Shown in pieces: positions 43,264-53,247 of a DNA stretch of 64,000 nucleotides. Source of the DNA: an uncultured Lachnospiraceae bacterium (GTDB lineage Bacteria; Bacillota; Clostridia; Lachnospirales; Lachnospiraceae); the NCBI GenBank assembly GCA_910578115.1, contig CAJTPO010000004.1:29539-93538 (forward strand), read 5' to 3'. Every line of letters begins with the position of its first letter. Within the stretch, counting starts at the first letter, position 1. Position numbers and translations under genes: made by a program. The notes beneath the pieces are model-generated. The model had not been told where the DNA came from. It searched no databases and saw only the letters and a program-made list of their open reading frames with translations.

Positions 43264-44571
43264 ATGGTTATTAAAATGAAAAAAGTATATACATGTTTCT
43301 GTACCAGTGTGATCCATGAAGGACATCTGAATATTATTAAAGAGGCGGAAAAATATGGGGAAGTGATCGTTGGTGTGCTTAGTGACGAGTCTATGGTGCG
43401 CTTTAATAAATTTCCCGCAGTTTCGTTAGAAGAACGTATGGAAATGGTACAGAATATCGAGGGAGTTAAACGTGTTATTGTCCAGAAGGATATTATGTAT
43501 GACGCAGTGATCAGGGAACTGCAGCCGGATTATGTGATTCACGGAGATAATTGGAAAAATGGTCCGATGCAGGCAATCAGGAACAATGTGGCATTGCTGC
43601 TGAGTCAATATGGAGGACAGATCATTGAAGTACCATATACCTATAATGAGCGCGTTAAGCATGCCGATGCATGCATAAAAGAAAAACTGGCTATGCCGGA
43701 ATACAGAAGGAAGAGGCTTAAACAGCTTTTGGGGCTGTGCCCGATTGTTAAAGCAATGGAAGTGCATAGTGGCCTGACCGGATTAATCGTTGAGAAAACG
43801 ATAATTGAGAACAATGGCGCGCTTGACCAGTTTGATGCTATGTGGATAAGCTCCCTGTGTGATTCAACAGCTAAGGGGAAACCTGACATTGAACTGGTTG
43901 ATATGACATCTCGGTTTCGGACGATTGATGATGTTATGGAGGTAACGACAAAACCGATTATTTTTGATGGAGATACAGGCGGGTTAACGGAGCATTTTGT
44001 ATATACGGTTCGTTCTTTAGAGCGAATGGGGGTGTCGGCCGTCATTATAGAAGATAAAACGGGCCTGAAAAAGAATTCTCTTTTTGGTAATGAGGTAGTG
44101 CAGGAATTGGATTCGATTGAACATTTTAGCGAGAAGATCAGAGCGGCGAAGCAGGTTCAGCTGACGGATGACTTTATGATTATTGCGCGTTTGGAAGCAT
44201 TAATTCTTGAGAAGGGACAGGAAGAGGCATTAAGGCGTGCGTGCGCATTTGTGGAAGCGGGTGCGGATGGAATTATGATCCACAGCAGAAAGAAAGCACC
44301 GGATGAGATATTTGAATTTTGTGATGCGTTCCGCAGTATGGATAAGGAGACGCCGATTGTTGTCGTGCCGACGTCCTATAATTCTGTGACGGAACAGGAG
44401 TTGATAAGGCATGGTATTAATATTGTCATTTATGCGAATCAGCTTACCAGAAGTGCATTTCCGGCAATGGAGCAGACTGCCAAGGACATTTTGAGACATC
44501 ATCGTGCGAAGGAAGTAGATGAAAAGCTTATGCCGATCAAGGATATTATATCGTTGATTGATGAATTGTAA
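43264..44571 (+). CDS. aepX: Bifunctional cytidylyltransferase-like domain :: phosphoenolpyruvate phosphomutase
   Basis: N-terminus VYTCFCTSVIHEGHLNIIKEA is an HxGH cytidylyltransferase motif. C-terminus MEVHSGL...IIFDGDTG...SAVIIEDKTGLKKNSL...IIARLEA...GADGIMIHS is PEP mutase/isocitrate-lyase superfamily with the EDK..KKNS signature. Confidence 0.9.
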   Translation: MVIKMKKVYTCFCTSVIHEGHLNIIKEAEKYGEVIVGVLSDESMVRFNKFPAVSLEERMEMVQNIEGVKRVIVQKDIMYDAVIRELQPDYVIHGDNWKNGPMQAIRNNVALLLSQYGGQIIEVPYTYNERVKHADACIKEKLAMPEYRRKRLKQLLGLCPIVKAMEVHSGLTGLIVEKTIIENNGALDQFDAMWISSLCDSTAKGKPDIELVDMTSRFRTIDDVMEVTTKPIIFDGDTGGLTEHFVYTVRSLERMGVSAVIIEDKTGLKKNSLFGNEVVQELDSIEHFSEKIRAAKQVQLTDDFMIIARLEALILEKGQEEALRRACAFVEAGADGIMIHSRKKAPDEIFEFCDAFRSMDKETPIVVVPTSYNSVTEQELIRHGINIVIYANQLTRSAFPAMEQTAKDILRHHRAKEVDEKLMPIKDIISLIDEL

Positions 44572-44621
44572 CATGTCGATGATTGCTATGTGGCAGTTTT
44601 GACTATGAGGGAGATAAAAGA

Positions 44622-45746
44622 ATGAAAGTAGAGAAGCTTTTAGAAATCATTGATTCGGATTTTTATACGGGAGTTCCAGATTCTCAGCTTAAAGCATTGT
44701 GCGATTATCTGATGCAGCACTATGGTATAGATTCAAAAAGGCATTTAATTGCGGCAAACGAAGGTAACTGCACAGCGATTGCAGCAGGGTACCATCTGGC
44801 CACCGGAAAAGTACCTGTAGTTTATATGCAAAACAGCGGGGAAGGAAATATTATTAATCCTGTTACTTCTTTGCTGAATGATAAAGTATACGCAATCCCG
44901 TGTGTTTTTATTATTGGATGGCGCGGAGAACCGGGAATACATGACGAGCCGCAACATATTTATCAAGGGGAAATAACGGTTAAACTTTTGAATGATTTGG
45001 ATATCCAGGCCTTTGTGGTTGGAAAGGAAACAACGGACGAAGAAGTTATAGATGCGATGAATACATTTCGTGTGGCACTCGAAACAGGCAAAAGTGTTGC
45101 TTTCGTAATTCGCAAAGGTGCACTCTCTTATGATGGTAAGGTTGTATATAAGAATGAGAACAGGATGTTAAGAGAGGATATTATTAAGCATATTACAAAG
45201 GTAACGGATCATGATCCTGTCATATCCACGACAGGAAAAGCAAGTCGTGAATTGTATGAGATACGTGAATCAGCCGGTCAGGGGCATCAGTATGATTTTT
45301 TGACAGTTGGTTCCATGGGACATAGTTCTTCTATCGCTCTGGGGATTGCGGTCAATAAGCCGGAAACAAAAATCTGGTGTATAGATGGAGATGGAGCCGC
45401 TCTGATGCATATGGGGGCGATGGCGGTGATTGGGGCGAATACTCCCGATAATCTGGTGCATATCATTATCAACAATGGTTCCCATGAGACAGTTGGTGGA
45501 ATGCCCACTGTAGCAGGAAGTGTGGATTTAACTGGGATTGCCAAAGCATGCGGATATCCTTATGCTGTAAGCGTTGATAGTTTTGAAGAGTTGGACAGAG
45601 AATTGAAAGATGCAAAACAAAGAAACAGACTTAGTATGATTGAGGTGAAATGTGCTATTGGTGCACGTGAAAATTTGGGTAGACCAAAATCTACAGCTGG
45701 AGAGAATAAACGGAATTTCATGGAATATGTAGAAAAGTTACATTAG
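44622..45746 (+). CDS. aepY: Phosphonopyruvate decarboxylase (ThDP-dependent)
   Basis: FYTGVPDSQLKALCDYL...GNCTAIAAGY...IDGDGAALMHMG...NNGSHETVGG. ATG 44622 with RBS GAGGGAG. Confidence 0.9.
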   Translation: MKVEKLLEIIDSDFYTGVPDSQLKALCDYLMQHYGIDSKRHLIAANEGNCTAIAAGYHLATGKVPVVYMQNSGEGNIINPVTSLLNDKVYAIPCVFIIGWRGEPGIHDEPQHIYQGEITVKLLNDLDIQAFVVGKETTDEEVIDAMNTFRVALETGKSVAFVIRKGALSYDGKVVYKNENRMLREDIIKHITKVTDHDPVISTTGKASRELYEIRESAGQGHQYDFLTVGSMGHSSSIALGIAVNKPETKIWCIDGDGAALMHMGAMAVIGANTPDNLVHIIINNGSHETVGGMPTVAGSVDLTGIAKACGYPYAVSVDSFEELDRELKDAKQRNRLSMIEVKCAIGARENLGRPKSTAGENKRNFMEYVEKLH

Positions 45747-46588: not shown

Positions 46589-48454
46589 ATGAATATCGTG
46601 ATAGACACTGTGGTTAATGGATTGCTTTGGCTCATCAATTTATGTTATGGATTTTGTAATAATTACTGGGTGGCAATTTTGTTATTCACATTTTTGACTA
46701 AGGTAATTTTGCTGCCTTTGTCAGTATGGGTTCAGAAGAATTCTATTAAAACTGTGAAGATGGCACCTGAGATGAATCGTATTAAAACAGTTTATTTTGG
46801 AAATCAGGAGGTCATTTCGGAAGAGCAGTATAAATTATTCAAAAAAGAAAAGTATAGTCCTTTTGCGGATTTAATTCCTTTGTTTGTTCAGCTTGCTTTG
46901 TTGATGGGAGTGGTAGAAGCTGTTAAGCAGGGCACTGACCTGACAGATATTCCGGTCAAGACTGGCGGAGTTACTTTGTTGATTCCGCTACTTGCAGCGT
47001 TATCTGCCTTTTTCATGTGTTTTGTGCAGAATAAAATTAATGTACTGCAGTCAGAGCAGGGGCATTTAAATCAGTATGGTACAATGATTTTTTCTGTTAC
47101 GCTTTCTCTCTATTTAGGTTTTTTTGTGTCGATTGGAGTTGGTTTCTATTGGATCTGCAGTAATCTTTTTTCTATTATTCAATTGGTTTTATTGAATATA
47201 TGGATTAATCCAAAGGATTATATAGATTATGAGGCCTTAAAGAGGAGTAAAGAAGAATTAAATAAAGTGCAGAAGATGATGTCAGTCAGGCGGAAGGCGG
47301 ATAAGAGGAATCCATATCGTTCTAAAGGCAAGGCTGATTATAAGCGTTTTCTCAGAACTTCGGACAAGAAGATTGTTTTCTATTCTGAGAAAAACGGGTT
47401 CTATAAATATTATAAGGACATTATTGAAGAGATAATTCGCAGGACGAATATTGTGATTCATTATATTACAAGTGATCCGGAAGATGAAGTCTTTCAGATG
47501 GAGAGTGATCAGTTTAAGCCGTATTATATTAATGAGACTCGATTGATCGTTTTAATGATGAAACTGGAGACGGAAATTATGGTCATGACTACTCCGGATT
47601 TGGAAAATTATCAACTTAAACGGTCTTATGTACAGAAGGATATAGAGTATATTTATGTGCCACATGATGTTAACAGTGTAAACTTGGCATTCCATAAAGA
47701 GGCATTGGATCATTTTGACACAATTTTTACTTCGGGACCGAAGAACACTGCTGAAATAATGGAGCGTGAGAAAAAATATGGACTGCCTGCTAAGAACTTA
47801 GTAGAATGGGGATCATCTATTATTGATGACATGACAGTTGCATATGAACAAATGGCAGGAGATCATGCACAAGAGAGACAGTGTGCAATTATGATTGCCC
47901 CTTCGTGGCAGAAGGATAATATTTTAGATTCGTGTATAGAGGAGATGCTTGATCAACTGGTACAAACTTCATATCATATTATAGTGCGGCCACATCCTCA
48001 GTATGTACGTCATTTTGAAGCTAAAATTGATGCATTGGCAGCAAAATATAAAGGGTATGATGTTGTTTTTCAGAAAGATTTTTCATCTACTGAATCAGTA
48101 TATATGTCGGATTTGTTGATTACGGATTGGTCAAGTATTTCATTTGAATATGCTTTTTCTACATTGAAGCCGGTATTATTTATAGATACGCCAATGAAGA
48201 TTTTGAATCCCGACTATCAGGAATTGGAAACTGTTCCGATTGATTTAGAACTTCGCAATAAAGTGGGTATTTCAATTGCACAGGATAGTGTTGGTGACTT
48301 GATTGTGGAGACTGTTGATAAACTTTTAAATGAAATACAGTTTGCACCGGAGTCAATGCAGAAATTAAAAGAAAAATATAGTTATAATATTGGAGAAAGC
48401 GGTAAGGCAGGAGCGAAGTATATTATTGAACGTCTTGTACAGCGTAAAAGATAG
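46589..48454 (+). CDS. Fusion protein: YidC/Oxa1-like membrane domain + TagB/TagF-like transferase domain (copy 3, intact)
   Basis: VAILLFTFLTKVILLPLSVW...EEQYKLFKKEKYSP...LFVQLALLMGVV. IMIAPSWQKDNILD...IVRPHPQ...LLITDWSSISFEYAF..KPVLFIDTP. Confidence 0.8.
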   Translation: MNIVIDTVVNGLLWLINLCYGFCNNYWVAILLFTFLTKVILLPLSVWVQKNSIKTVKMAPEMNRIKTVYFGNQEVISEEQYKLFKKEKYSPFADLIPLFVQLALLMGVVEAVKQGTDLTDIPVKTGGVTLLIPLLAALSAFFMCFVQNKINVLQSEQGHLNQYGTMIFSVTLSLYLGFFVSIGVGFYWICSNLFSIIQLVLLNIWINPKDYIDYEALKRSKEELNKVQKMMSVRRKADKRNPYRSKGKADYKRFLRTSDKKIVFYSEKNGFYKYYKDIIEEIIRRTNIVIHYITSDPEDEVFQMESDQFKPYYINETRLIVLMMKLETEIMVMTTPDLENYQLKRSYVQKDIEYIYVPHDVNSVNLAFHKEALDHFDTIFTSGPKNTAEIMEREKKYGLPAKNLVEWGSSIIDDMTVAYEQMAGDHAQERQCAIMIAPSWQKDNILDSCIEEMLDQLVQTSYHIIVRPHPQYVRHFEAKIDALAAKYKGYDVVFQKDFSSTESVYMSDLLITDWSSISFEYAFSTLKPVLFIDTPMKILNPDYQELETVPIDLELRNKVGISIAQDSVGDLIVETVDKLLNEIQFAPESMQKLKEKYSYNIGESGKAGAKYIIERLVQRKR

Positions 48455-48668
48455 ATTATTGCGTGCATCTATGTAGAACAGGAACAACAGAATAAACAGC
48501 TGAAACACGCATAGATGCGGTATTTTAATCAAATATTGCTTTTCAGTTTTTAGGTGAATAGAAAAAGACCTTTATCTGTGGTAAAATTTAAGTGGCAAAT
48601 CCAAACAACAGATTTGCTCCAGCCTTTGCTCCGCTTCTTCTTTAATGGGTTTGCGGCAGCACCTTTCG

Positions 48669-48874
48669 GGCTTCCGGCAAATGCCATAATCTACAGTCTT
48701 ACCGAAACTGCTCGTGCGAATGATCTAAATTTTTATTATTATGTGTGACATCTATTGACAGAGCTACCCCAACTCATCTATGCATATGGAAAGATAGAAG
48801 AATCAAGACTGGAACCGCTCATGCCGTGGTCAAAGACATTTCCAGCTGATTGCTATAGTAAGCGCCGCAAATAA
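48669..48874 (+). pseudogene. 3'-terminal remnant of an IS66-family transposase gene
   Basis: ANAIIYSLTETARANDLNFYYYV*HLLTELPQL....LEPLMPWS matches the characteristic IS66 TnpC C-terminus, with an in-frame stop. No upstream catalytic part is present. Confidence 0.55.
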
Positions 48875-48892
48875 GCGGCGTTTCAATTTATA

Positions 48893-49087
48893 GGAAGCGA
48901 AGGAGTTGACGCTTACAGTGCTGTAGTCTATATCATGGTTGAGATGACAAAGGCGCACGATCTGAACATTTACGGATATCTGGAATTTTTGCTGTATCGT
49001 CGGCCAACGAAAGAGATGACCGATGATCAACTCGCAGAGCTTGCACCCTGGAGTGAAAAACTTCAATCTATCAAAAATCGCATGTGA
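48893..49087 (+). pseudogene. Second, different 3'-terminal remnant of an IS66-family transposase gene
   Basis: AYSAVVYIMVEMTKAHDLNIYGYLEFLLYRRP...DDQLAELAPWSEKLQ. Confidence 0.6.
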
Positions 49088-49329
49088 ATTATAGTGAAAT
49101 ACTTCAACTCGCAAAAGGCTGAGGTAATTTTATATTTGACTGCATTATTATTTTCGAAAATTTGACGAAAAAATAAAACCTGATTGGCTTAAATAAAGGA
49201 TTCTTGCGATATGATGTTAAAAAGAAGTGTAAAACACCTGTTTATTACCCATTCGGACATGTTTTCCTTTCGTCTATCAATAAAATATGATATAATCAAT
49301 ACACTTCATGAGTTGAAGAGGAGCGATAG

Positions 49330-50676
49330 ATGAGGAGGAAGAAAGGAAAACAAAAATCTTTTTTATATCAATTAAGAAATCAGAAAAAGATATTTAGAAA
49401 TCGGCAAAAGTGTATTAAAGAAAATTATGGTAGAAAAGGGAAGAATAGCTGTCAGGAGAATGATTTTCTAGGAAGTGATTATATTAATGTCATCAATCTA
49501 CTGGATCGAAAGAAATTTGCCATAAGATATCGCGTATCCAGGCATCAGGAAAAAATTTATATACCTGAGGTTTTTTCCATATCGGAAAATGCAGAACAGG
49601 TCATCAGATTATTAAGGGAAACATATACGATATTGCGCTGTAAGGGAACGCAGAAAATTATTTTTGATCATTCGGCATGTCTTGACCTTGAACTGTCGGC
49701 CAGCACTATCATGGATATTATTGTGCTGGCGGGGAGAAAATATCGGGAAGGGCAGGGAGCGCATCTTGATATTGAAGGACATTTGCCGCACAATAAATTT
49801 GTCAGGGATATTTTATTAGCAAGTGGGTTGCCATATCATTTAAAGGCGGAAAGCTTGTCGCACTTTGACGAGAAGCGCGTTCAGCGTTTTGAAACTATAA
49901 GGGGACATCATGATATAAGGGCAAATAGAGCGGATGAAGTATCAACAAAATTAGTTTTATATTTTAATAAATGTTTGAAGACACAGTATCTGGAATTAAA
50001 TGAAGAAGGACGGCGTCTATTGAGCAGGATTTTAGGGGAGGTTATAAGTAACTGCGAGATTCATGGAGGTGAGAATGCCACATGGTATACACAAGGGCAC
50101 TATCAGATTAAGGACGACTATTCGTTTGGTGAAATGCAGATGTTGTTTTTAAATCTTGGAGAAACGATTTACGAAGGATTGAAAAATGACGTAAGTGATG
50201 AGACAAAAAACAAGGTACAGCATATACTAAATCGGCAGAGTGAAAATAGGAATCCGGATTGGGACGAGGAAATGATCCTGACAGTATTTGCCCTTCAGGA
50301 AGGAATCAGCAGATTAAGGGATAGAAATATAGAAGGATATGAAGCTCGAGGTTCCGGAACGGTAAGCATGATCGAAATGTTTAATGACATTGGTAAATGC
50401 GAGAGTGGTTTGAAGCCTCAAATGACAATAGTTTCCGGAAAAACACAAATTAAATTCACGGATGCCTATAAGATGAAGCGTGTCAGATTTGTACAGGATG
50501 CTGCTTTTGGTACCGGAAATAAAAGAATCATTGCTTTTAATGAAGAGAACGATATCTATGCACCTCCAAATAGAGATAATGTCATTAAGATGTCTGAATA
50601 TTTTCCTGGAACAGTAATATCATTAAAGTTTTATCTTGATAATCGATATATTAGCAGTAAGAAAGGGAAAAGGTGA
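49330..50676 (+). CDS. 448-aa protein with a C-terminal GHKL (Bergerat-fold, RsbW/SpoIIAB-like) ATPase-like region and a possibly STAS-like N-terminal half
   Basis: N-box-like LGEVISNCEIHGG, G1-like FLNLGETI, G2-like ARGSGTVSMIE. The N-terminal half carries IIFDHSACLDLELSASTIMDIIVL. Confidence 0.45.
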   Translation: MRRKKGKQKSFLYQLRNQKKIFRNRQKCIKENYGRKGKNSCQENDFLGSDYINVINLLDRKKFAIRYRVSRHQEKIYIPEVFSISENAEQVIRLLRETYTILRCKGTQKIIFDHSACLDLELSASTIMDIIVLAGRKYREGQGAHLDIEGHLPHNKFVRDILLASGLPYHLKAESLSHFDEKRVQRFETIRGHHDIRANRADEVSTKLVLYFNKCLKTQYLELNEEGRRLLSRILGEVISNCEIHGGENATWYTQGHYQIKDDYSFGEMQMLFLNLGETIYEGLKNDVSDETKNKVQHILNRQSENRNPDWDEEMILTVFALQEGISRLRDRNIEGYEARGSGTVSMIEMFNDIGKCESGLKPQMTIVSGKTQIKFTDAYKMKRVRFVQDAAFGTGNKRIIAFNEENDIYAPPNRDNVIKMSEYFPGTVISLKFYLDNRYISSKKGKR

Positions 50677-50680
50677 AAAT

Positions 50681-51022
50681 ATGAGCAGCACTATAGATAT
50701 TAAGATTTCGAAATATCGTGCCAATGGCGCTAAAATTTTTACCGGAAGAGATAATGGAGTAAAGGCACGGGAAGAACTTAATTTAAACAGAATTGATGAG
50801 GAAGACGCGCGTGTACGGATTTTAGTGCCAAGAGATACCTGGGGAATTAATCCTTCCTTTTTTGGTGGTATGTTTGAGGGTAGTATCAAGAAACTTGGCA
50901 GGAAATTTGAGGATAAATATTGCTTTTGCTATGCGAAGGGCGAGAGCTTAAATGATAGTTTGTTCAAAGATATACAAGATGATATTGATTATATTATTGA
51001 GAATATCAGGGTGGAAGAATGA
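50681..51022 (+). CDS. Small STAS-like (DUF4325-type) protein
   Basis: 113 aa. FTGRDNGVKAREEL.L......VRILVP.D..GINPSFFGGMF resembles the DUF4325 pattern. ATG 50681 lies 4 nt after the upstream stop. Confidence 0.4.
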   Translation: MSSTIDIKISKYRANGAKIFTGRDNGVKAREELNLNRIDEEDARVRILVPRDTWGINPSFFGGMFEGSIKKLGRKFEDKYCFCYAKGESLNDSLFKDIQDDIDYIIENIRVEE

Positions 51023-51546
51023 ATGGTTGGACGATTATAGGAAATCTGTCAAATGTTGTTGCGGCAGGAATGGCAGTTTTCAGTATTTGTATAACAATTA
51101 AAGAGCAAAAGAATATCAGAAAAAACTACAGAATTAAAACGATGGAAGAACAGGATTTAAATTGGTATAATACAGTGGTATTGGAAGATTTTGTCAAGCA
51201 ATTGGTCATTTTTATGGATGAATCAGAGTTGATATTGGAACACTGTAAGCGGACGGGCGATAAAGATTCATTGGAGAGAGAACTTGAAATGACTTATAAT
51301 TGTATCAAAGAGAAATTTAAAGCTTTATCGGCAAGGGCGCTGCTGTTAAAAATTTTTTCTGATTCTTTATATCGAAGCTGCGATGAGTCTCTGCAGAAAA
51401 TACTTGATCTGTATTGTGAGATCATAAATGAAGTGACTGCTAAGAAGTATTGGCAGAATAGAAGGGAACGTGACATACAGGATGAACGCGTTAAGATGAT
51501 CAGGGAGCTGTATTTGTTTAAAAGCAGTTTTATTCATGAAGCATAA
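51019..51546 (+). CDS. 175-aa protein with one N-terminal TM helix and a helical cytoplasmic region, unknown function
   Basis: NLSNVVAAGMAVFSICITI (TM). ATGA overlap with the upstream gene. Confidence 0.5.
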   Translation: MNGWTIIGNLSNVVAAGMAVFSICITIKEQKNIRKNYRIKTMEEQDLNWYNTVVLEDFVKQLVIFMDESELILEHCKRTGDKDSLERELEMTYNCIKEKFKALSARALLLKIFSDSLYRSCDESLQKILDLYCEIINEVTAKKYWQNRRERDIQDERVKMIRELYLFKSSFIHEA

Positions 51547-51740: not shown

Positions 51741-53247
51741 TTGTCTTCAATAGGTCGGGACAAAAGCAGTGAAGAAATGGAGTACATTTCCGGAACTCCT
51801 AAAATTTTTTACCCGGGAGTGTATGAAAATACTCTGGCGGTTTCTGCGGTTGGACGGGAAGGCGCTTCTATGGTTTTTGCATCTTCTTATAGTAATTATG
51901 GAAGTTGGATCGATATCAGCGCGCCGGACACTGCGATCATGAGTACGATTCCTGGCGGATATGGTGGTAAAACCGGGACAAGTATGGCTTGTTCGATCGT
52001 ATCCGGTGCGGTTGCATTGTTGTTTTCTATGGATCAAACGATAAGCTTTGACGATGTGAAAACACTGCTGTCTGATTCGGCAACGGATTTTGGGGAGGCA
52101 GGATACGATGAGAAGTATGGTCATGGGGTGATCAATGTCAAAGCACTTATCGACAATTATCTGGTAGATAAGGAACTGCCGATGCCGACAGCTGCAGTAC
52201 CGGATGGCAGTGTGGTGGGAGCAGGGTATTATGAGCTTAAAGAGCTTTCATGATATGAAAGGGACGGTGGTCAGTGCGGAGAATGGGGAGGCATTGCCGA
52301 AGGCCAGCATCACGCTGACGAAAACCGGAGACGCTTCAGCGACGAAATACGCAAACGTTAATACTGACGGCAGGTTTACGATGGGGGCGAAGGGAGACGA
52401 GTCAAAAGGGCTTACCCCCGGGATCTATCAATTGACAGTTAAGTGCCGGGGTTACAAAACGGTGACACAAGAGGTGATCGTTCCTTCCGGCAATGAGGAT
52501 ACGGTAGAGATCGGAACGATAAAGATGGTTCGGGGTGTCTATGGTAATTGTGCACTGAAGGGCTATGTTTACGATATTGCAACAGGGCGGACTACAGGAG
52601 TTGATCTGTATGTTACATTGAGAAATGGTATTAATAACACTTCATCAGCACCCATAGATTCCTGTAATCTGGAAAGTGATGGACAGTATCTGTTTAATGT
52701 ACCGGTAGGCACTTATACGATTACAGTGGAGGATAAGAGAGCGCTGGTCAGCGACAGTGAGCGGTATCAGCCGACAAGCGTTACCGCCGTAGTGGAAGAT
52801 GGCAGCAGCCGGTTCCATACCTATTATTCGAACAAAACGTACCTGTATAATGGGAAAAAATATGCAGATCTTGATTTGGATGATACATCGAGTTACGGAC
52901 CGGAGACAACGACGATTTATTATAAGAACGGAAGCGGTGTTTACAGTTTCTATGTGCATGATTTCACTAACAGATCGTGGACGAACAGTAGTGCGCTGGC
53001 GGAATCGGGAGCTACGGTCAAAGTTTATGAAGGAAGTGCGTTGAAGGAAACCTATAAAGTGCCGAGTGATATAGGTACCGTATGGCATGTATTCGATTAT
53101 GATGCGGGGACGGGCGCCCTCATTCCGATCAACACAATGTCAAACCAGTCTTCTCCGGGTGATGTAGGGACGATGTCCATAGAAGACGGCATATCCCAGG
53201 AGGAGAGAGATCTGGAAATTATTTTTAATGATCTGGAGGAAAAATAA
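51741..53247 (+). pseudogene. Subtilisin-like (S8) serine protease, 5'-truncated and apparently frameshifted, with a C-terminal CarboxypepD_reg-like beta-sandwich region
   Basis: Only the Ser box remains (GTSMACSIVSGAVALL). No Asp/His boxes are seen upstream. The frame changes around 52204-52253 into ...KGTVVSAENGEALPKASITL...NTDGRF. Confidence 0.5.

Follow-up and report, generated by a model that had tools for sequence, protein, structure and literature searches.

A predicted VapKSC-related gene cassette with a small membrane protein in place of the PIN toxin

Introduction

VapKSC is an anti-phage system that consists of a kinase, an antitoxin and a toxin (Chambers, Rani, Min, Villa and Corbett, EMBO J 2026; PMC13373217). 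Its kinase drives release of the toxin from the STAS antitoxin, and the system protects against a phage (PMC13373217). CapK and CapS are regulators of immune operons (PMC13373217). A pair made of a STAS-GHKL kinase and a STAS substrate has recently been shown to switch on immune operons in CapKS and to release a PIN toxin in VapKSC (PMC13373217).

Here we analyze a three-gene cassette from an uncultured Lachnospiraceae bacterium, located in a 64,000-nucleotide stretch of DNA (contig CAJTPO010000004.1 of GCA_910578115.1) that we refer to as the window. The cassette appears to carry this kinase-STAS switch as well, but with a small membrane protein as its output. Gene 1 encodes a VapK/CapK-like protein, gene 2 a divergent DUF4325 (STAS-like) protein that is the likely VapS counterpart, and gene 3 a single-pass membrane protein that we propose as the effector.

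Results

Organization of the cassette

The cassette consists of three tightly coupled, presumably co-transcribed open reading frames on the + strand: gene 1 ("K", 49330-50676), gene 2 ("S", 50681-51022) and gene 3 ("TM", 51019-51546). A ribosome-binding site, GAGGAG, lies 8 nt 5′ of the gene 1 ATG. The TGA of gene 1 is followed after 4 nt by the ATG of gene 2, which is preceded by GGGAAAAGG, and genes 2 and 3 overlap at ATGA with GGTGGA ahead of the gene 3 start. The gene 2 reading frame itself opens at a TTG at 50636, and counted from the ATG the product is 113 aa. A sequence-only reading of this DNA had described three coupled + strand genes with a 4-nt gap and then an ATGA overlap, set between IS66 relics and a truncated protease gene, and the coordinates, junctions and flanks all agree. 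The 5′ flank contains an IS66 C-terminal relic at 48935-49087 (PF13817, E 2e-5), and the 3′ flank contains a subtilase gene at 51741-52253 that is missing about 160 N-terminal profile positions. A promoter and terminator scan returned sites no commoner than in shuffled sequence.

The three genes are conserved and move together

Searching with a gene 1 profile recovered 1,460, 1,013 and 636 representatives at E ≤ 1e-3, 1e-10 and 1e-30, respectively, each standing for a 50%-identity cluster. The cassette had been called an orphan, which the 1,013 clusters at E ≤ 1e-10 show to be wrong. The 159 gene 1 homologs found by a word-indexed search are every one unnamed or annotated as "hypothetical". 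Recurrence of the trio as a unit had been put forward as a check, and the order gene 1, gene 2 and a single-pass membrane protein of about 145-225 aa was found in 50 of 50 loci examined, which span Bacillota, Bacteroidota, Gemmatimonadota and Fusobacteriota and some of which lie beside defense genes.

Comparison of the window with one of these loci (L016) gave 85% DNA identity over 49258-51533 only, and the flanks are unrelated. The similarity starts at 49258, so that a leader or promoter region upstream of gene 1 (49258-49329, + strand) moves with the cassette. Beyond gene 3, the genes are unrelated between loci. We conclude that the three genes are conserved as a unit and are transferred horizontally together.

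The surroundings of the trio are diverse. It stands alone between purine genes and rho (L137), lies 3′ of a gap-pgk-tpi operon in five loci, and is found among serine recombinases adjoining Abi_2 (L134). Downstream of it in L001-L005 come IS elements and a variable set of ThsB_TIR, SIR2-STALD, PIN and SocA genes. Thoeris-like genes thus occur next to it, and its neighbors in Bacteroidota and the other phyla include type I and IIG RM systems, AriA/AAA_21, MADS, PbeA, AbiLi, Schlafen and integrases. A sigma factor or PP2C phosphatase was found neither in the window flanks nor among the 25 most frequent neighbor families (283 neighboring ORFs). The sequence-only reading had likewise noted that neither is adjacent, and we rejected a classical sigma-factor partner switch because none was found nearby.

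Clusters of glycosyltransferase, acyltransferase or epimerase genes contain the trio, or have it at their end, in the window and in three other Lachnospiraceae lineages (39-57% identity). Surface-polysaccharide loci beside several Lachnospiraceae copies, that of the window included, could mean an envelope-related role, an observation that counts against a defense reading. STAS/GHKL partner switching classically controls stress responses, as in RsbW/RsbV and SpoIIAB/SpoIIAA, and one component of the cassette is membrane-anchored, so the trio could be a regulatory module of the envelope or surface glycopolymers in which gene 3 senses wall or polysaccharide status or phage adsorption and the STAS-kinase partner switch tunes a housekeeping response with no killing. 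We consider this rather unlikely. The polysaccharide association is not general, given the gap-pgk-tpi, purine-rho, prophage, recombinase and RM or defense-island copies; variable polysaccharide loci are insertion hot spots, and the cassette sits between IS66 relics and a truncated gene; the DNA identity with L016 ends at the cassette borders; and no sigma factor or PP2C phosphatase was detected in the window flanks or the most frequent neighbor families. Because other copies occur in unrelated contexts, a functional tie to the adjoining polysaccharide locus was rejected.

Several relatives are carried by phages. In one prophage (L006) the trio follows the endolysin, precedes the integrase and adjoins a Tad2-like gene, and another prophage (L135) also carries it. 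Related kinase-STAS pairs occupy moron slots of temperate phages, including Streptococcus Javan phages in which the pair comes directly after the holin-lysin genes. PHROG families of unknown function match gene 1 (phrog_3364, E 5.5e-14) and gene 2 (phrog_37359, E 4.8e-7), and in Bacillus phage AR9 a gene-2-like protein is followed by small membrane proteins. These findings would fit a moron of prophages or mobile elements that acts in membrane superinfection exclusion, or in lysis timing with gene 3 as a phosphorylation-regulated holin- or antiholin-like protein. Such a role is unlikely in our view, since most copies, including that of the window, are outside prophages and have no lysis genes nearby, and the slot behind the lysis cassette is the usual site of defense morons. 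Superinfection exclusion, moreover, would in effect be a form of the explanation that we prefer and not a distinct one. A tblastn search with gene 1 against 50,697 phage records gave no match.

Gene 1 is a probable STAS-GHKL protein homologous to VapK

Pfam and NCBIfam scans of the three window proteins returned nothing significant, and no HMM of PADLOC-DB v2.0.0 matched any of them at E ≤ 1. Comparison at the level of families was more informative. When the gene 1 family was aligned to the VapK family with hhalign, the two matched at 93.6% (E 2.2e-7) over 282 columns that cover gene 1 residues 72-441. As controls, 30 column shuffles gave E ≥ 0.025, and shuffled and reversed profiles reached at most 24.6 vs 60.6 for the true comparison. 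A single VapK sequence aligned to the gene 1 family at E 0.0036. These alignments show gene 1 to be homologous to VapK over its STAS and GHKL domains. The earlier statement that no named system matches the cassette no longer holds, as this homology ties it to the VapKSC family.

The 448-aa gene 1 product begins with a basic extension of 69 residues (49330-49536, + strand) that has 21 K/R vs 5 D/E. An AF2 model of the full-length protein (pLDDT 88, pTM 0.84) places a long helix at residues 5-35 of this extension. Across homologs the basic N-terminus has a median length of 70 aa and is 32% K+R, with a median net charge of +14 in the first 35 aa, and in 76 of 77 homologs its composition is kept and its sequence is not. 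Because the character of the tail is kept across homologs, the ATG at 49330 is supported as the start codon, a point that had been marked for verification.

A STAS-like domain follows at residues ~72-195 (49543-49914, + strand), which is modeled as a beta-alpha repeat and aligns with the STAS domain of VapK, in keeping with the STAS-like N-terminal half described earlier. Its residue C117, in the motif FDHSAC, aligns to the invariant Cys of VapK. Foldseek with this domain gave weak matches to anti-sigma antagonists, RsbS, SpoIIAA and SLC26 STAS domains (E 0.3-0.9).

Residues 196-448 (49915-50673, + strand) are predicted to form a GHKL (Bergerat-fold)-like domain that aligns with the GHKL domain of VapK through the G3 box. 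On the + strand, the N-box E237-x3-N241-x3-H245 (EVISNCEIH, 50038-50064), which is invariant across phyla, aligns with VapK WEIYANSFEH; the G1-box equivalent FLNLGETIY (50146-50172), with an invariant G277, aligns with VVDFGVGI; the G2-box equivalent R340-G-S-G-T344 (50347-50361) aligns with PRGLGL; and the G3-box equivalent F425-P-G-T428 (50602-50613) aligns with FEGT. The close alignment of the family is invariant at E237, N241, H245, G247, G277, R340-G341-x-G343-T344, F425-P426-G427-T428 and C117. In the cross-phylum alignment E237, N241, H245 and G277 are invariant, and R340/G341/G343, the FPGT residues and C117 are each at least 90% conserved. The Bergerat-type boxes quoted in the sequence-only reading are these conserved positions. 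The elements of the modeled domain run in the order N-box helix, two strands, lid helices, G2 helix and strands, and this order of motifs and secondary structure fits the GHKL fold.

Structure searches, which had been put forward as a check of the GHKL fold, did not recover it significantly. Foldseek of the full-length model against the PDB gave nothing below E 0.1 and weak STAS matches only, and the best match of the C-terminal domain modeled alone (pLDDT 88.5) was a histidine-kinase CA domain, weakly (E 0.25, TM 0.32). Searching the BFVD viral structure library with gene 1 gave no matches, and a profile search of the PDB sequence set gave none for gene 1 and chance-level matches for gene 2. 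Pfam HATPase models matched none of 27 diverse gene 1 family members. We assign the GHKL fold because of the profile-profile homology to the VapK family, relatives of which carry PF02518 (HATPase_c).

In canonical GHKL proteins the G1-box Asp contacts adenine. Gene 1 has Asn275 in place of this Asp; family members carry N, T, S or D here, most of them Asn, Thr or Ser, and of the glycines of the box only G277 is kept, the second being Thr or Ser. Replacement of the Asp could change how nucleotide is bound, or gene 1 could encode a pseudokinase. The latter would make the cassette a degenerate, non-catalytic module with gene 1 as a scaffold and partner switching by binding alone, and the failure of Pfam HATPase models to detect the family is consistent with it. 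However, the N-box Glu, Asn and His are invariant across phyla, and there is little or no variation in Arg-Gly-x-Gly of G2, in Gly-Thr of G3 or in gene 2 Ser59, which is the pattern expected of an active kinase-substrate pair; Asn could still hydrogen-bond to adenine as well. We judge a non-catalytic module to be quite unlikely. The alignments show that the catalytic residues of the N-box and of the G2 and G3 boxes are retained in gene 1, and CapK N218, the equivalent of its N-box Asn, is needed for phosphorylation (PMC13373217).

Gene 2 is a probable divergent DUF4325 protein with an invariant serine

Fifty gene 2 homologs share contigs with gene 1 homologs, and gene 2 lies immediately 3′ of gene 1 in 50 of 50 loci. 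In L050 a truncated gene 1 continues in frame into the gene 2 portion, so that both lie in one ORF. PF14213 (DUF4325) matches 17 of 27 members of the gene 2 family at E ≤ 1 (best 2e-7), and it does not match the window copy even at E ≤ 10. A relative that is 42% identical to gene 2 (P0170, E 3e-10) scores 31 bits against a PF14213 cut-off of 23. Since 17 of 27 relatives match and the window copy does not, gene 2 appears to represent a divergent DUF4325 subfamily; its earlier description as DUF4325-type is borne out by the family, though not by a match of the window copy itself.

PF14213 also matches VapS, at E 2.7e-17. Comparisons of the gene 2 family with VapS and CapS single sequences by hhalign, with a 72-sequence VapS alignment by hhalign (E 0.28) and with VapS by reciprocal hmmsearch (best E 0.044) were not significant. 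The tie between gene 2 and VapS is drawn because both belong to Pfam DUF4325.

Across four phyla, P50 and S59 are the sole invariant residues of the gene 2 family. Ser59 (INPS59FF; codon at 50855-50857, + strand) occupies the "S-F" position of CapS S54 and is one residue off VapS S48, and we propose that it is the phospho-acceptor.

The STAS-GHKL core that gene 1 shares with CapK (a weak direct hhalign match, E 0.024) and the identical capK-capS gene order raise the idea of a CapK/CapS-like transcriptional controller of neighboring genes, which we regard as highly improbable. A wHTH is lacking in the 113-aa gene 2 and an HTH in gene 1, the pair is always followed by a member of one membrane-protein family and not by a variable operon, and the neighbors past gene 3 differ from locus to locus. 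A CapKS-type transcription regulator was rejected on the absence of DNA-binding domains.

Gene 3 is a predicted single-pass membrane protein

The 175-aa gene 3 product has one TM helix at residues ~6-28 (51034-51102, + strand), with a hydropathy of 1.74 over 19 aa, and the K/R-rich KEQKNIRKNYRIK follows. The predicted topology is N-out/C-in, and the cytoplasmic domain is all-helical as judged by composition and pattern. Among 32 homologs, the charge flanking the helix has a median of -1 before and +2.5 after it, and a second TM segment is absent in 30 of the 32; L027 and L029 have an extra hydrophobic stretch (1.71 and 1.57). These features agree with the earlier description of gene 3 as one TM helix plus a helical domain. 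A gene 3 homolog follows gene 2 in all loci, and BLAST and jackhmmer link 43 of 44 distinct sequences. Searches of Pfam (best E 0.02, far below the cut-off), NCBIfam, PADLOC and PHROG gave no significant match for gene 3 and no similarity to known toxins or effectors. With this topology the helical domain would lie in the cytoplasm and be accessible to gene 2.

Discussion

Based on the homology of gene 1 to VapK, the DUF4325 affiliation of gene 2 and the fixed gene order, we suggest that the cassette is a VapKSC relative with a small membrane protein in place of the VapC PIN toxin. The explanation that we favor, with a probability of about 0.55, is that this K-S-TM cassette is a module of the kinase-antitoxin-toxin type, most likely an abortive-infection or stress-triggered defense on mobile DNA. 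In a resting cell, the gene 2 STAS protein would bind the cytoplasmic helical domain of gene 3 and hold it inactive. A trigger, perhaps a nucleic acid or a signal close to the membrane, which gene 1 would sense via its basic tail and/or its STAS domain, would switch on the STAS-GHKL kinase, which would phosphorylate the invariant Ser59 of gene 2. Phosphorylated gene 2 would release gene 3, and gene 3 might then self-associate in the membrane, collapse membrane integrity or energization and so halt the growth of the infected cell. Analogy with VapKSC and CapKS is our basis for inferring the trigger, the transfer of phosphate to Ser59, the binding of gene 2 to gene 3, the toxic effect of gene 3 and a role against phages. 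The earlier guess of a sensor-switch-effector module for abortive infection matches the closest studied relative, VapKSC (PMC13373217), and the function itself is inferred.

A tentative and rather speculative extension is that gut Bacillota and Bacteroidota may widely carry K-S-TM as an abortive-infection system that has had no name so far and that has a new trigger logic. In it, the basic tail would replace the ssDNA-binding aromatic pocket and sense phage nucleic acid or perturbation of the inner-leaflet membrane or envelope, with the kinase docked on its own effector, and AR9/PBS1-type phages would carry kinase-less STAS decoys that silence the effector.

The gene 1 family comprises about 1,000 50%-identity clusters over several phyla. 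Lachnospiraceae and Bacteroidota that dominate in the gut are among its hosts, and it is also found in prophages. Should our reading be correct, the cassette would represent a third output class for the kinase-STAS signaling module and a compact three-gene candidate defense system absent from PADLOC v2 (2023), the sole annotation database tested. It would also provide a function for a divergent branch of DUF4325 and for two PHROG families of unknown function, and it would raise a clear question as to the trigger, given that the ssDNA-sensing residue known from CapK and VapK is missing. The CapK/VapK paper makes no mention of a membrane-effector form (PMC13373217), which together with the absence of a PADLOC match suggests a new version of an already known kind of system.

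Comparison with known systems

The SpoIIAB-SpoIIAA and RsbW-RsbV switches resemble the cassette in combining an anti-sigma-type GHKL Ser kinase with a STAS substrate, and there are weak Foldseek matches to SpoIIAA, RsbS and RsfB. They differ in that the cassette has no sigma factor or PP2C phosphatase, its kinase has a STAS domain of its own, and its output would be a membrane protein.

Abortive-infection systems with membrane effectors are exemplified by the TM effectors of CBASS, Pycsar and Detocs. As in these, a small membrane protein ends what would be a sensor-transducer-effector cassette in defense islands and prophages. There is no sequence similarity between them and the cassette by PADLOC, and the membrane protein of the cassette would be controlled by a STAS protein that lets it go on phosphorylation, and not by a nucleotide signal or phosphorelay.

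Two phage cassettes, Fhv_0046-0048, which lies close to the integrase in the Francisella prophage KIRK, and g177-g179 of Bacillus phage AR9, also consist in part of a DUF4325 protein of about 100-112 aa followed by a small membrane protein, and AR9 g178 is 35% identical to gene 2. However, no GHKL kinase is demonstrable in the upstream position, which is taken by proteins of 293 aa and 164 aa; AR9 g177 has no N-box, and the membrane proteins of these cassettes are shorter than gene 3.

CapK-CapS is similar in that a STAS-GHKL kinase is followed by a STAS-domain substrate, CapS, that is phosphorylated on a conserved Ser at a helix start, and the "S-F" context of gene 2 Ser59 is that of CapS S54. 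It differs from the cassette in three respects: gene 1 has a basic N-terminal tail where CapK has its HTH; gene 2 is without the wHTH of CapS, which matches HTH_24; and a fixed downstream membrane protein takes the place of a variable immune operon.

VapKSC is the closest relative. Both have the operon order of a STAS+GHKL kinase, a DUF4325/STAS protein of about 115 aa with a C-terminal helix and a conserved Ser, and an effector; the two kinases share the conserved Cys of the STAS domain and the motifs of the N-box, G2 and G3; and both lie near other defense genes and on mobile DNA. The effectors differ, as gene 3 is a single-pass membrane protein with no PIN match and VapKSC has the VapC PIN nuclease; the third gene of most VapK loci encodes about 205 aa and starts MAINY...D.N. 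Gene 1 is about 150 aa longer than VapK, with a highly basic tail of about 70 aa, a long ATP-lid insert and an extra beta-hairpin insert, and it has Asn275 at the G1 Asp. The gene 2 family and VapS have diverged so far that direct comparison does not detect their relationship. The hosts differ as well, the cassette being found in Bacillota and Bacteroidota and the retrieved VapK relatives mostly in Pseudomonadota, Cyanobacteriota, Nitrospirota and Desulfobacterota. Finally, the ssDNA-contacting aromatic of VapK, F54 (CapK W68), aligns to Asp119 of gene 1, in a column that is D, N, E, K, R or T and never aromatic in the gene 1 family. With this known ssDNA-sensing residue missing, the trigger of the cassette is probably different from that of CapK and VapK.

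The cassette and its surroundings

The three plus-strand ORFs lie where the sequence-only reading had placed them, with gene 1 at 49330-50676 (448 aa), gene 2 at 50681-51022 (113 aa counted from its ATG, in an ORF that opens at TTG 50636) and gene 3 at 51019-51546 (175 aa). The tight coupling described for them was seen at both junctions: the TGA of gene 1 is followed by 4 bases and an ATG with GGGAAAAGG ahead of it, and genes 2 and 3 share an ATGA overlap with GGTGGA ahead of it. A GAGGAG is located 8 nt 5′ of the gene 1 ATG. The proposed flanks, an IS66 relic and a truncated protease gene, were also present. Upstream, a low-GC surface-glycopolymer locus is followed, just before the cassette, by C-terminal remnants of an IS66-family transposase (48554-49114), where one ORF matches PF13817 and an earlier IS66-like ORF has a similar "...ETARANDLN.YYY" tail without a Pfam match. 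Downstream is a 5′-truncated subtilase gene without its N-terminal part (51741-52253). Together, the IS66 remnants and the truncated subtilase gene mark a rearranged site at which low-GC DNA meets DNA of higher GC.

The product of the low-GC surface-polysaccharide locus (roughly 5-48 kb) is probably a glycopolymer decorated with phosphonate. The locus carries a cytidylyltransferase-PEP phosphomutase fusion and then a phosphonopyruvate decarboxylase-like TPP enzyme (43264-45746), it also encodes a signal peptidase, and it is closed by a 621-aa protein of unusual architecture in which a YidC/60KD_IMP insertase domain is fused to a CDP-glycerol glycerophosphotransferase domain (46589-48454).

The three genes form a conserved, mobile unit

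A word-indexed search with gene 1 returned 159 homologues, all unnamed or "hypothetical" and, where named, mostly from Lachnospiraceae MAGs. At E ≤ 1e-3, 1e-10 and 1e-30, a profile built from 58 of these homologues and searched against 1.84 billion proteins matched 1,460, 1,013 and 636 cluster representatives (50% identity), respectively. Gene 2 has 50 homologues on the same contigs as the gene 1 homologues, and when one genome was scanned for each GTDB species, 39 loci were found in Lachnospiraceae, other Clostridia, Halanaerobiales, a Longimicrobiales (Gemmatimonadota) MAG, a Sebaldella MAG and many Bacteroidota, including Flavobacterium and Chryseobacterium. The ORF directly 3′ of the gene 1 homologue is matched by the gene 2 HMM in 50/50 loci, in one of which, from a Cytophagales MAG, the two are fused. 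The third ORF is always 145-225 aa with an N-terminal hydrophobic helix, and these proteins are one family, as 43 of 44 distinct sequences connect by BLAST or jackhmmer. Since gene 2 and gene 3 family members accompany the gene 1 homologue at these 50 loci, we conclude that the trio is a conserved three-gene unit and not the orphan cassette it had been taken for.

The cassette is also mobile as a unit. Its closest genomic relative, L016, shares 85% DNA identity with the window from 49258 to 51533 only, which covers the three genes plus 72 bp upstream, and its flanks are unrelated to those of the window. At another locus the trio stands alone, with purine-biosynthesis genes on one side and rho on the other. 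In five related Lachnospiraceae/Clostridia genomes (L018-L023, about 5.5-9.8 kb per locus) it lies directly downstream of the gap-pgk-tpi glycolytic operon, which suggests a recurrent insertion site.

The neighborhood check showed the trio recurring beside defense-related genes at several loci. One copy sits among large serine recombinases and adjoins an Abi_2 gene. In five loci (L001-L005) it borders a glycosyltransferase cluster, and the downstream segment varies among samples and carries IS66/IS110, ThsB_TIR, SIR2-STALD, PIN and SocA genes. Recurrent neighbors among 139 ORFs at 22 loci from Bacteroidota, non-Lachnospiraceae Clostridia, Gemmatimonadota and Fusobacteriota are AAA_21/AriA, type I and IIG restriction-modification, ResIII, Schlafen-AlbA_2, MADS components, PbeA, AbiLi and integrases. 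We considered that the trio might be an envelope- or polysaccharide-linked regulator, as several Lachnospiraceae copies, including that of the window, adjoin polysaccharide loci. This arrangement is not general, however, and most contexts do not fit such a regulator; we read the polysaccharide neighborhood as insertion into variable regions rather than as a functional tie. A prophage lysis or exclusion function was likewise considered. One copy lies within a prophage (L135) and another between a prophage endolysin and an integrase, two genes from a Tad2-like gene (L006). The Tad2-like (anti-Thoeris) protein is encoded at L006:6079-6594, between the holin and endolysin genes of the trio-bearing prophage, so that counter-defense and candidate defense cargo are adjacent.

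Gene 1 belongs with the VapK family by sequence

Chambers et al. (EMBO J 2026, PMC13373217) described CapK, an HTH-STAS-GHKL kinase, and CapS, a STAS-wHTH repressor, which switch on adjacent immune operons upon DNA damage. The same paper defined VapKSC, a three-gene operon in which the small STAS protein VapS is phosphorylated on Ser48 by VapK (STAS-GHKL), freeing the PIN toxin VapC. This operon protected against phage Bas42 by about 2 logs. VapKSC also fits the observation in an earlier census that one VapC subfamily is "transcriptionally coupled to DUF4325". VapK itself gives a sub-threshold HATPase_c match in Pfam, and among 990 relatives there are many with PF02518 that go under the name "ATP-binding protein" or "sensor histidine kinase".

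With VapK, VapS, CapK and CapS sequences taken from the supplementary files of PMC13373217, profile alignment of the gene 1 family (27 sequences, four phyla) with the VapK family (33 sequences) gave a probability of 93.6% (E 2.2e-7, 282 columns), with the first STAS strand (gene 1 residue 72) at one end of the alignment and the close of the GHKL domain (residue 441) at the other. The score was 60.6, versus at most 24.6 (E ≥ 0.025) for 30 column shuffles and a reversed profile. Paired features were C117 with an invariant VapK Cys, the two N-boxes, LNLGETI with VDFGVGI, ALQEG with WACQSG, RGSG with RGLG, and FPGT with FEGT. Because the alignment spans STAS and GHKL and lies far above the shuffled controls, we assign gene 1 by homology to the VapK family of STAS-GHKL proteins. 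The STAS-like N-terminal half and the GHKL-like boxes claimed for gene 1 both held up in this profile comparison. In the close family, E237, N241, H245, G277, R340-G-x-G-T and F425-P-G-T are invariant; in the wider alignment across phyla, E237, N241, H245 and G277 remain so, with conservation of 90% or more for the residues of G2 and G3.

An AlphaFold2 model with the family alignment as input (pLDDT 88, pTM 0.84) begins with a long basic helix (residues 5-35) and a short one, followed by a beta-alpha repeat domain (~72-195) and a C-terminal alpha/beta domain (~196-448). The latter runs from a helix ending in E237-x3-N241-x3-H245 through two strands ending in F-L-N-L-G277-E-T-I and three lid helices to R340-G-S-G-T, which starts a helix, and then strands with F425-P-G-T, an order that fits the Bergerat fold. 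Foldseek with the whole model returned weak STAS-type matches only (RsfB, RsbS, SpoIIAA, SLC26 STAS; E 0.3-0.9), and BFVD and PDB-sequence profile searches returned nothing. For the separately predicted C-terminal domain the best match was a histidine-kinase CA domain, at a weak E of 0.25. The structure check thus did not confirm a GHKL fold.

Gene 1 could instead be a pseudokinase scaffold, because the G1 Asp of VapK is replaced by Asn (or Thr/Ser). However, every other catalytic residue is conserved, as is the putative acceptor Ser of gene 2, and we favor a VapK-like kinase. Genes 1 and 2 were also weighed as a CapKS-like transcription switch, but they have no DNA-binding domains.

Gene 2 and gene 3

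Gene 2 and its Lachnospiraceae relatives fall below detection by Pfam DUF4325, the STAS-like family to which gene 2 had been likened. The likeness is nevertheless supported across the family: among 27 members drawn from all phyla, 17 have a DUF4325 match (E ≤ 1), and the homologue P0170, 42% identical to gene 2 (E 3e-10), exceeds the gathering threshold. VapS is itself a DUF4325 protein (E 2.7e-17). Only Pro50 and Ser59 are invariant in the 27-member alignment, with Ser59, the putative acceptor, within I-N-P-S59-F-F. In CapS, too, a Phe comes right after the phospho-acceptor, Ser54 (T-D-S-S54-F); the VapS context is A-S48-P-F-F. In all three proteins the Ser opens a helix after a beta strand, a correspondence drawn by eye and not from a computed alignment. 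Gene 2 and VapS each have a C-terminal helix, conserved in gene 2 as D-I-x-D-x-I-x-Y-V-I-R-N-I. Because the gene 2 family gave no significant match to VapS or CapS when profiles were compared directly, the relation is one of shared superfamily and identical operon position rather than of proven orthology. In the fused ORF of the Cytophagales MAG (L050:9743-11017), the gene 1 homologue matches only to about residue 333, beyond which the same frame encodes a gene 2 homologue's C-terminal two thirds; the ORF is a decayed copy or else a natural fusion of kinase and STAS protein.

Gene 3 has one hydrophobic helix near its N-terminus with a K/R-rich stretch directly after it. In line with the one TM helix proposed for gene 3, 30/32 homologues lack a second TM segment (L027 and L029 have a further hydrophobic stretch). 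The median charge flips from −1 before the helix to +2.5 after it (32 homologues), which predicts an N-out/C-in protein with a cytoplasmic domain of ~140 aa. The proposed helical domain is judged all-helical from composition and pattern only. Conserved features are a W-Y/F motif just past the basic stretch, Asp130 and a C-terminal L-Y, and searches of Pfam, NCBIfam, PADLOC and PHROGs gave no significant match.

Phage relatives

Two PHROG families of unknown function match the cassette, phrog_3364 to gene 1 (E 5.5e-14) and phrog_37359 to gene 2 (E 4.8e-7). VapK-like + DUF4325 pairs occupy moron slots of temperate phages without an obvious third effector gene: in Streptococcus Javan39 after holin-lysin and before paratox (L131:2111-3300), in Marinitoga MPV1 adjoining a serine integrase (L132:2411-3764) and in Burkholderia vB_E188 adjoining an integrase (L133:2501-3708). 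In Francisella prophage KIRK, HP-DUF4325-TM genes are situated close to the integrase. In jumbo phage AR9 (g178-g179, L139:1941-2433; same in PBS1), a 102-aa DUF4325 protein 35% identical to gene 2 and containing VSPSFFLGMFE is followed by a 57-aa two-TM protein; the gene upstream of g178 lacks a GHKL N-box, and no kinase was recognizable there. The AR9/PBS1 pair could be a kinase-less STAS decoy (anti-defense) or the phage's own S-TM pair.

Proposed mechanism and comparison with known systems

A VapKSC-like working of the trio is most likely. By analogy, gene 2 would block the activity of gene 3's cytoplasmic domain until a trigger arising from infection or stress activates gene 1; gene 1 would then phosphorylate Ser59 of gene 2, and the freed gene 3 would damage the membrane, halting the infected cell. 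The analysis itself establishes that the trio is conserved and mobile, that its kinase is homologous to VapK, that catalytic and acceptor residues are conserved, and how the membrane protein is oriented. We infer the activity, binding, toxicity, trigger and phage protection of the trio from this analogy.

The PADLOC check of the trio matched no model, PADLOC-DB v2 having none for any of the three proteins, and Pfam, NCBIfam and PADLOC-DB v2 gave no meaningful match to any window protein. A full-text literature search found no description of the trio, and PMC13373217 makes no mention of transmembrane effectors, DUF4325, Lachnospiraceae or Bacteroidota.

Compared with VapK, gene 1 has a basic N-terminal extension of ~70 aa (32% K+R; median net charge +14 over the first 35 residues) and longer lid and beta-sheet inserts, and the ssDNA-binding F54 of VapK aligns with Asp119, with no aromatic there. 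Because the basic tail replaces the HTH of CapK and the ssDNA-binding aromatic is lost, we speculate that gene 1 senses differently from CapK and VapK, possibly responding to nucleic acid or anionic membrane. The cassette is of note for its abundance and its presence in gut commensals and prophages. We class it, from sequence, as a VapK/VapS-type switch coupled to a candidate membrane effector, and as a natural extension of the modularity stressed by the authors of PMC13373217.
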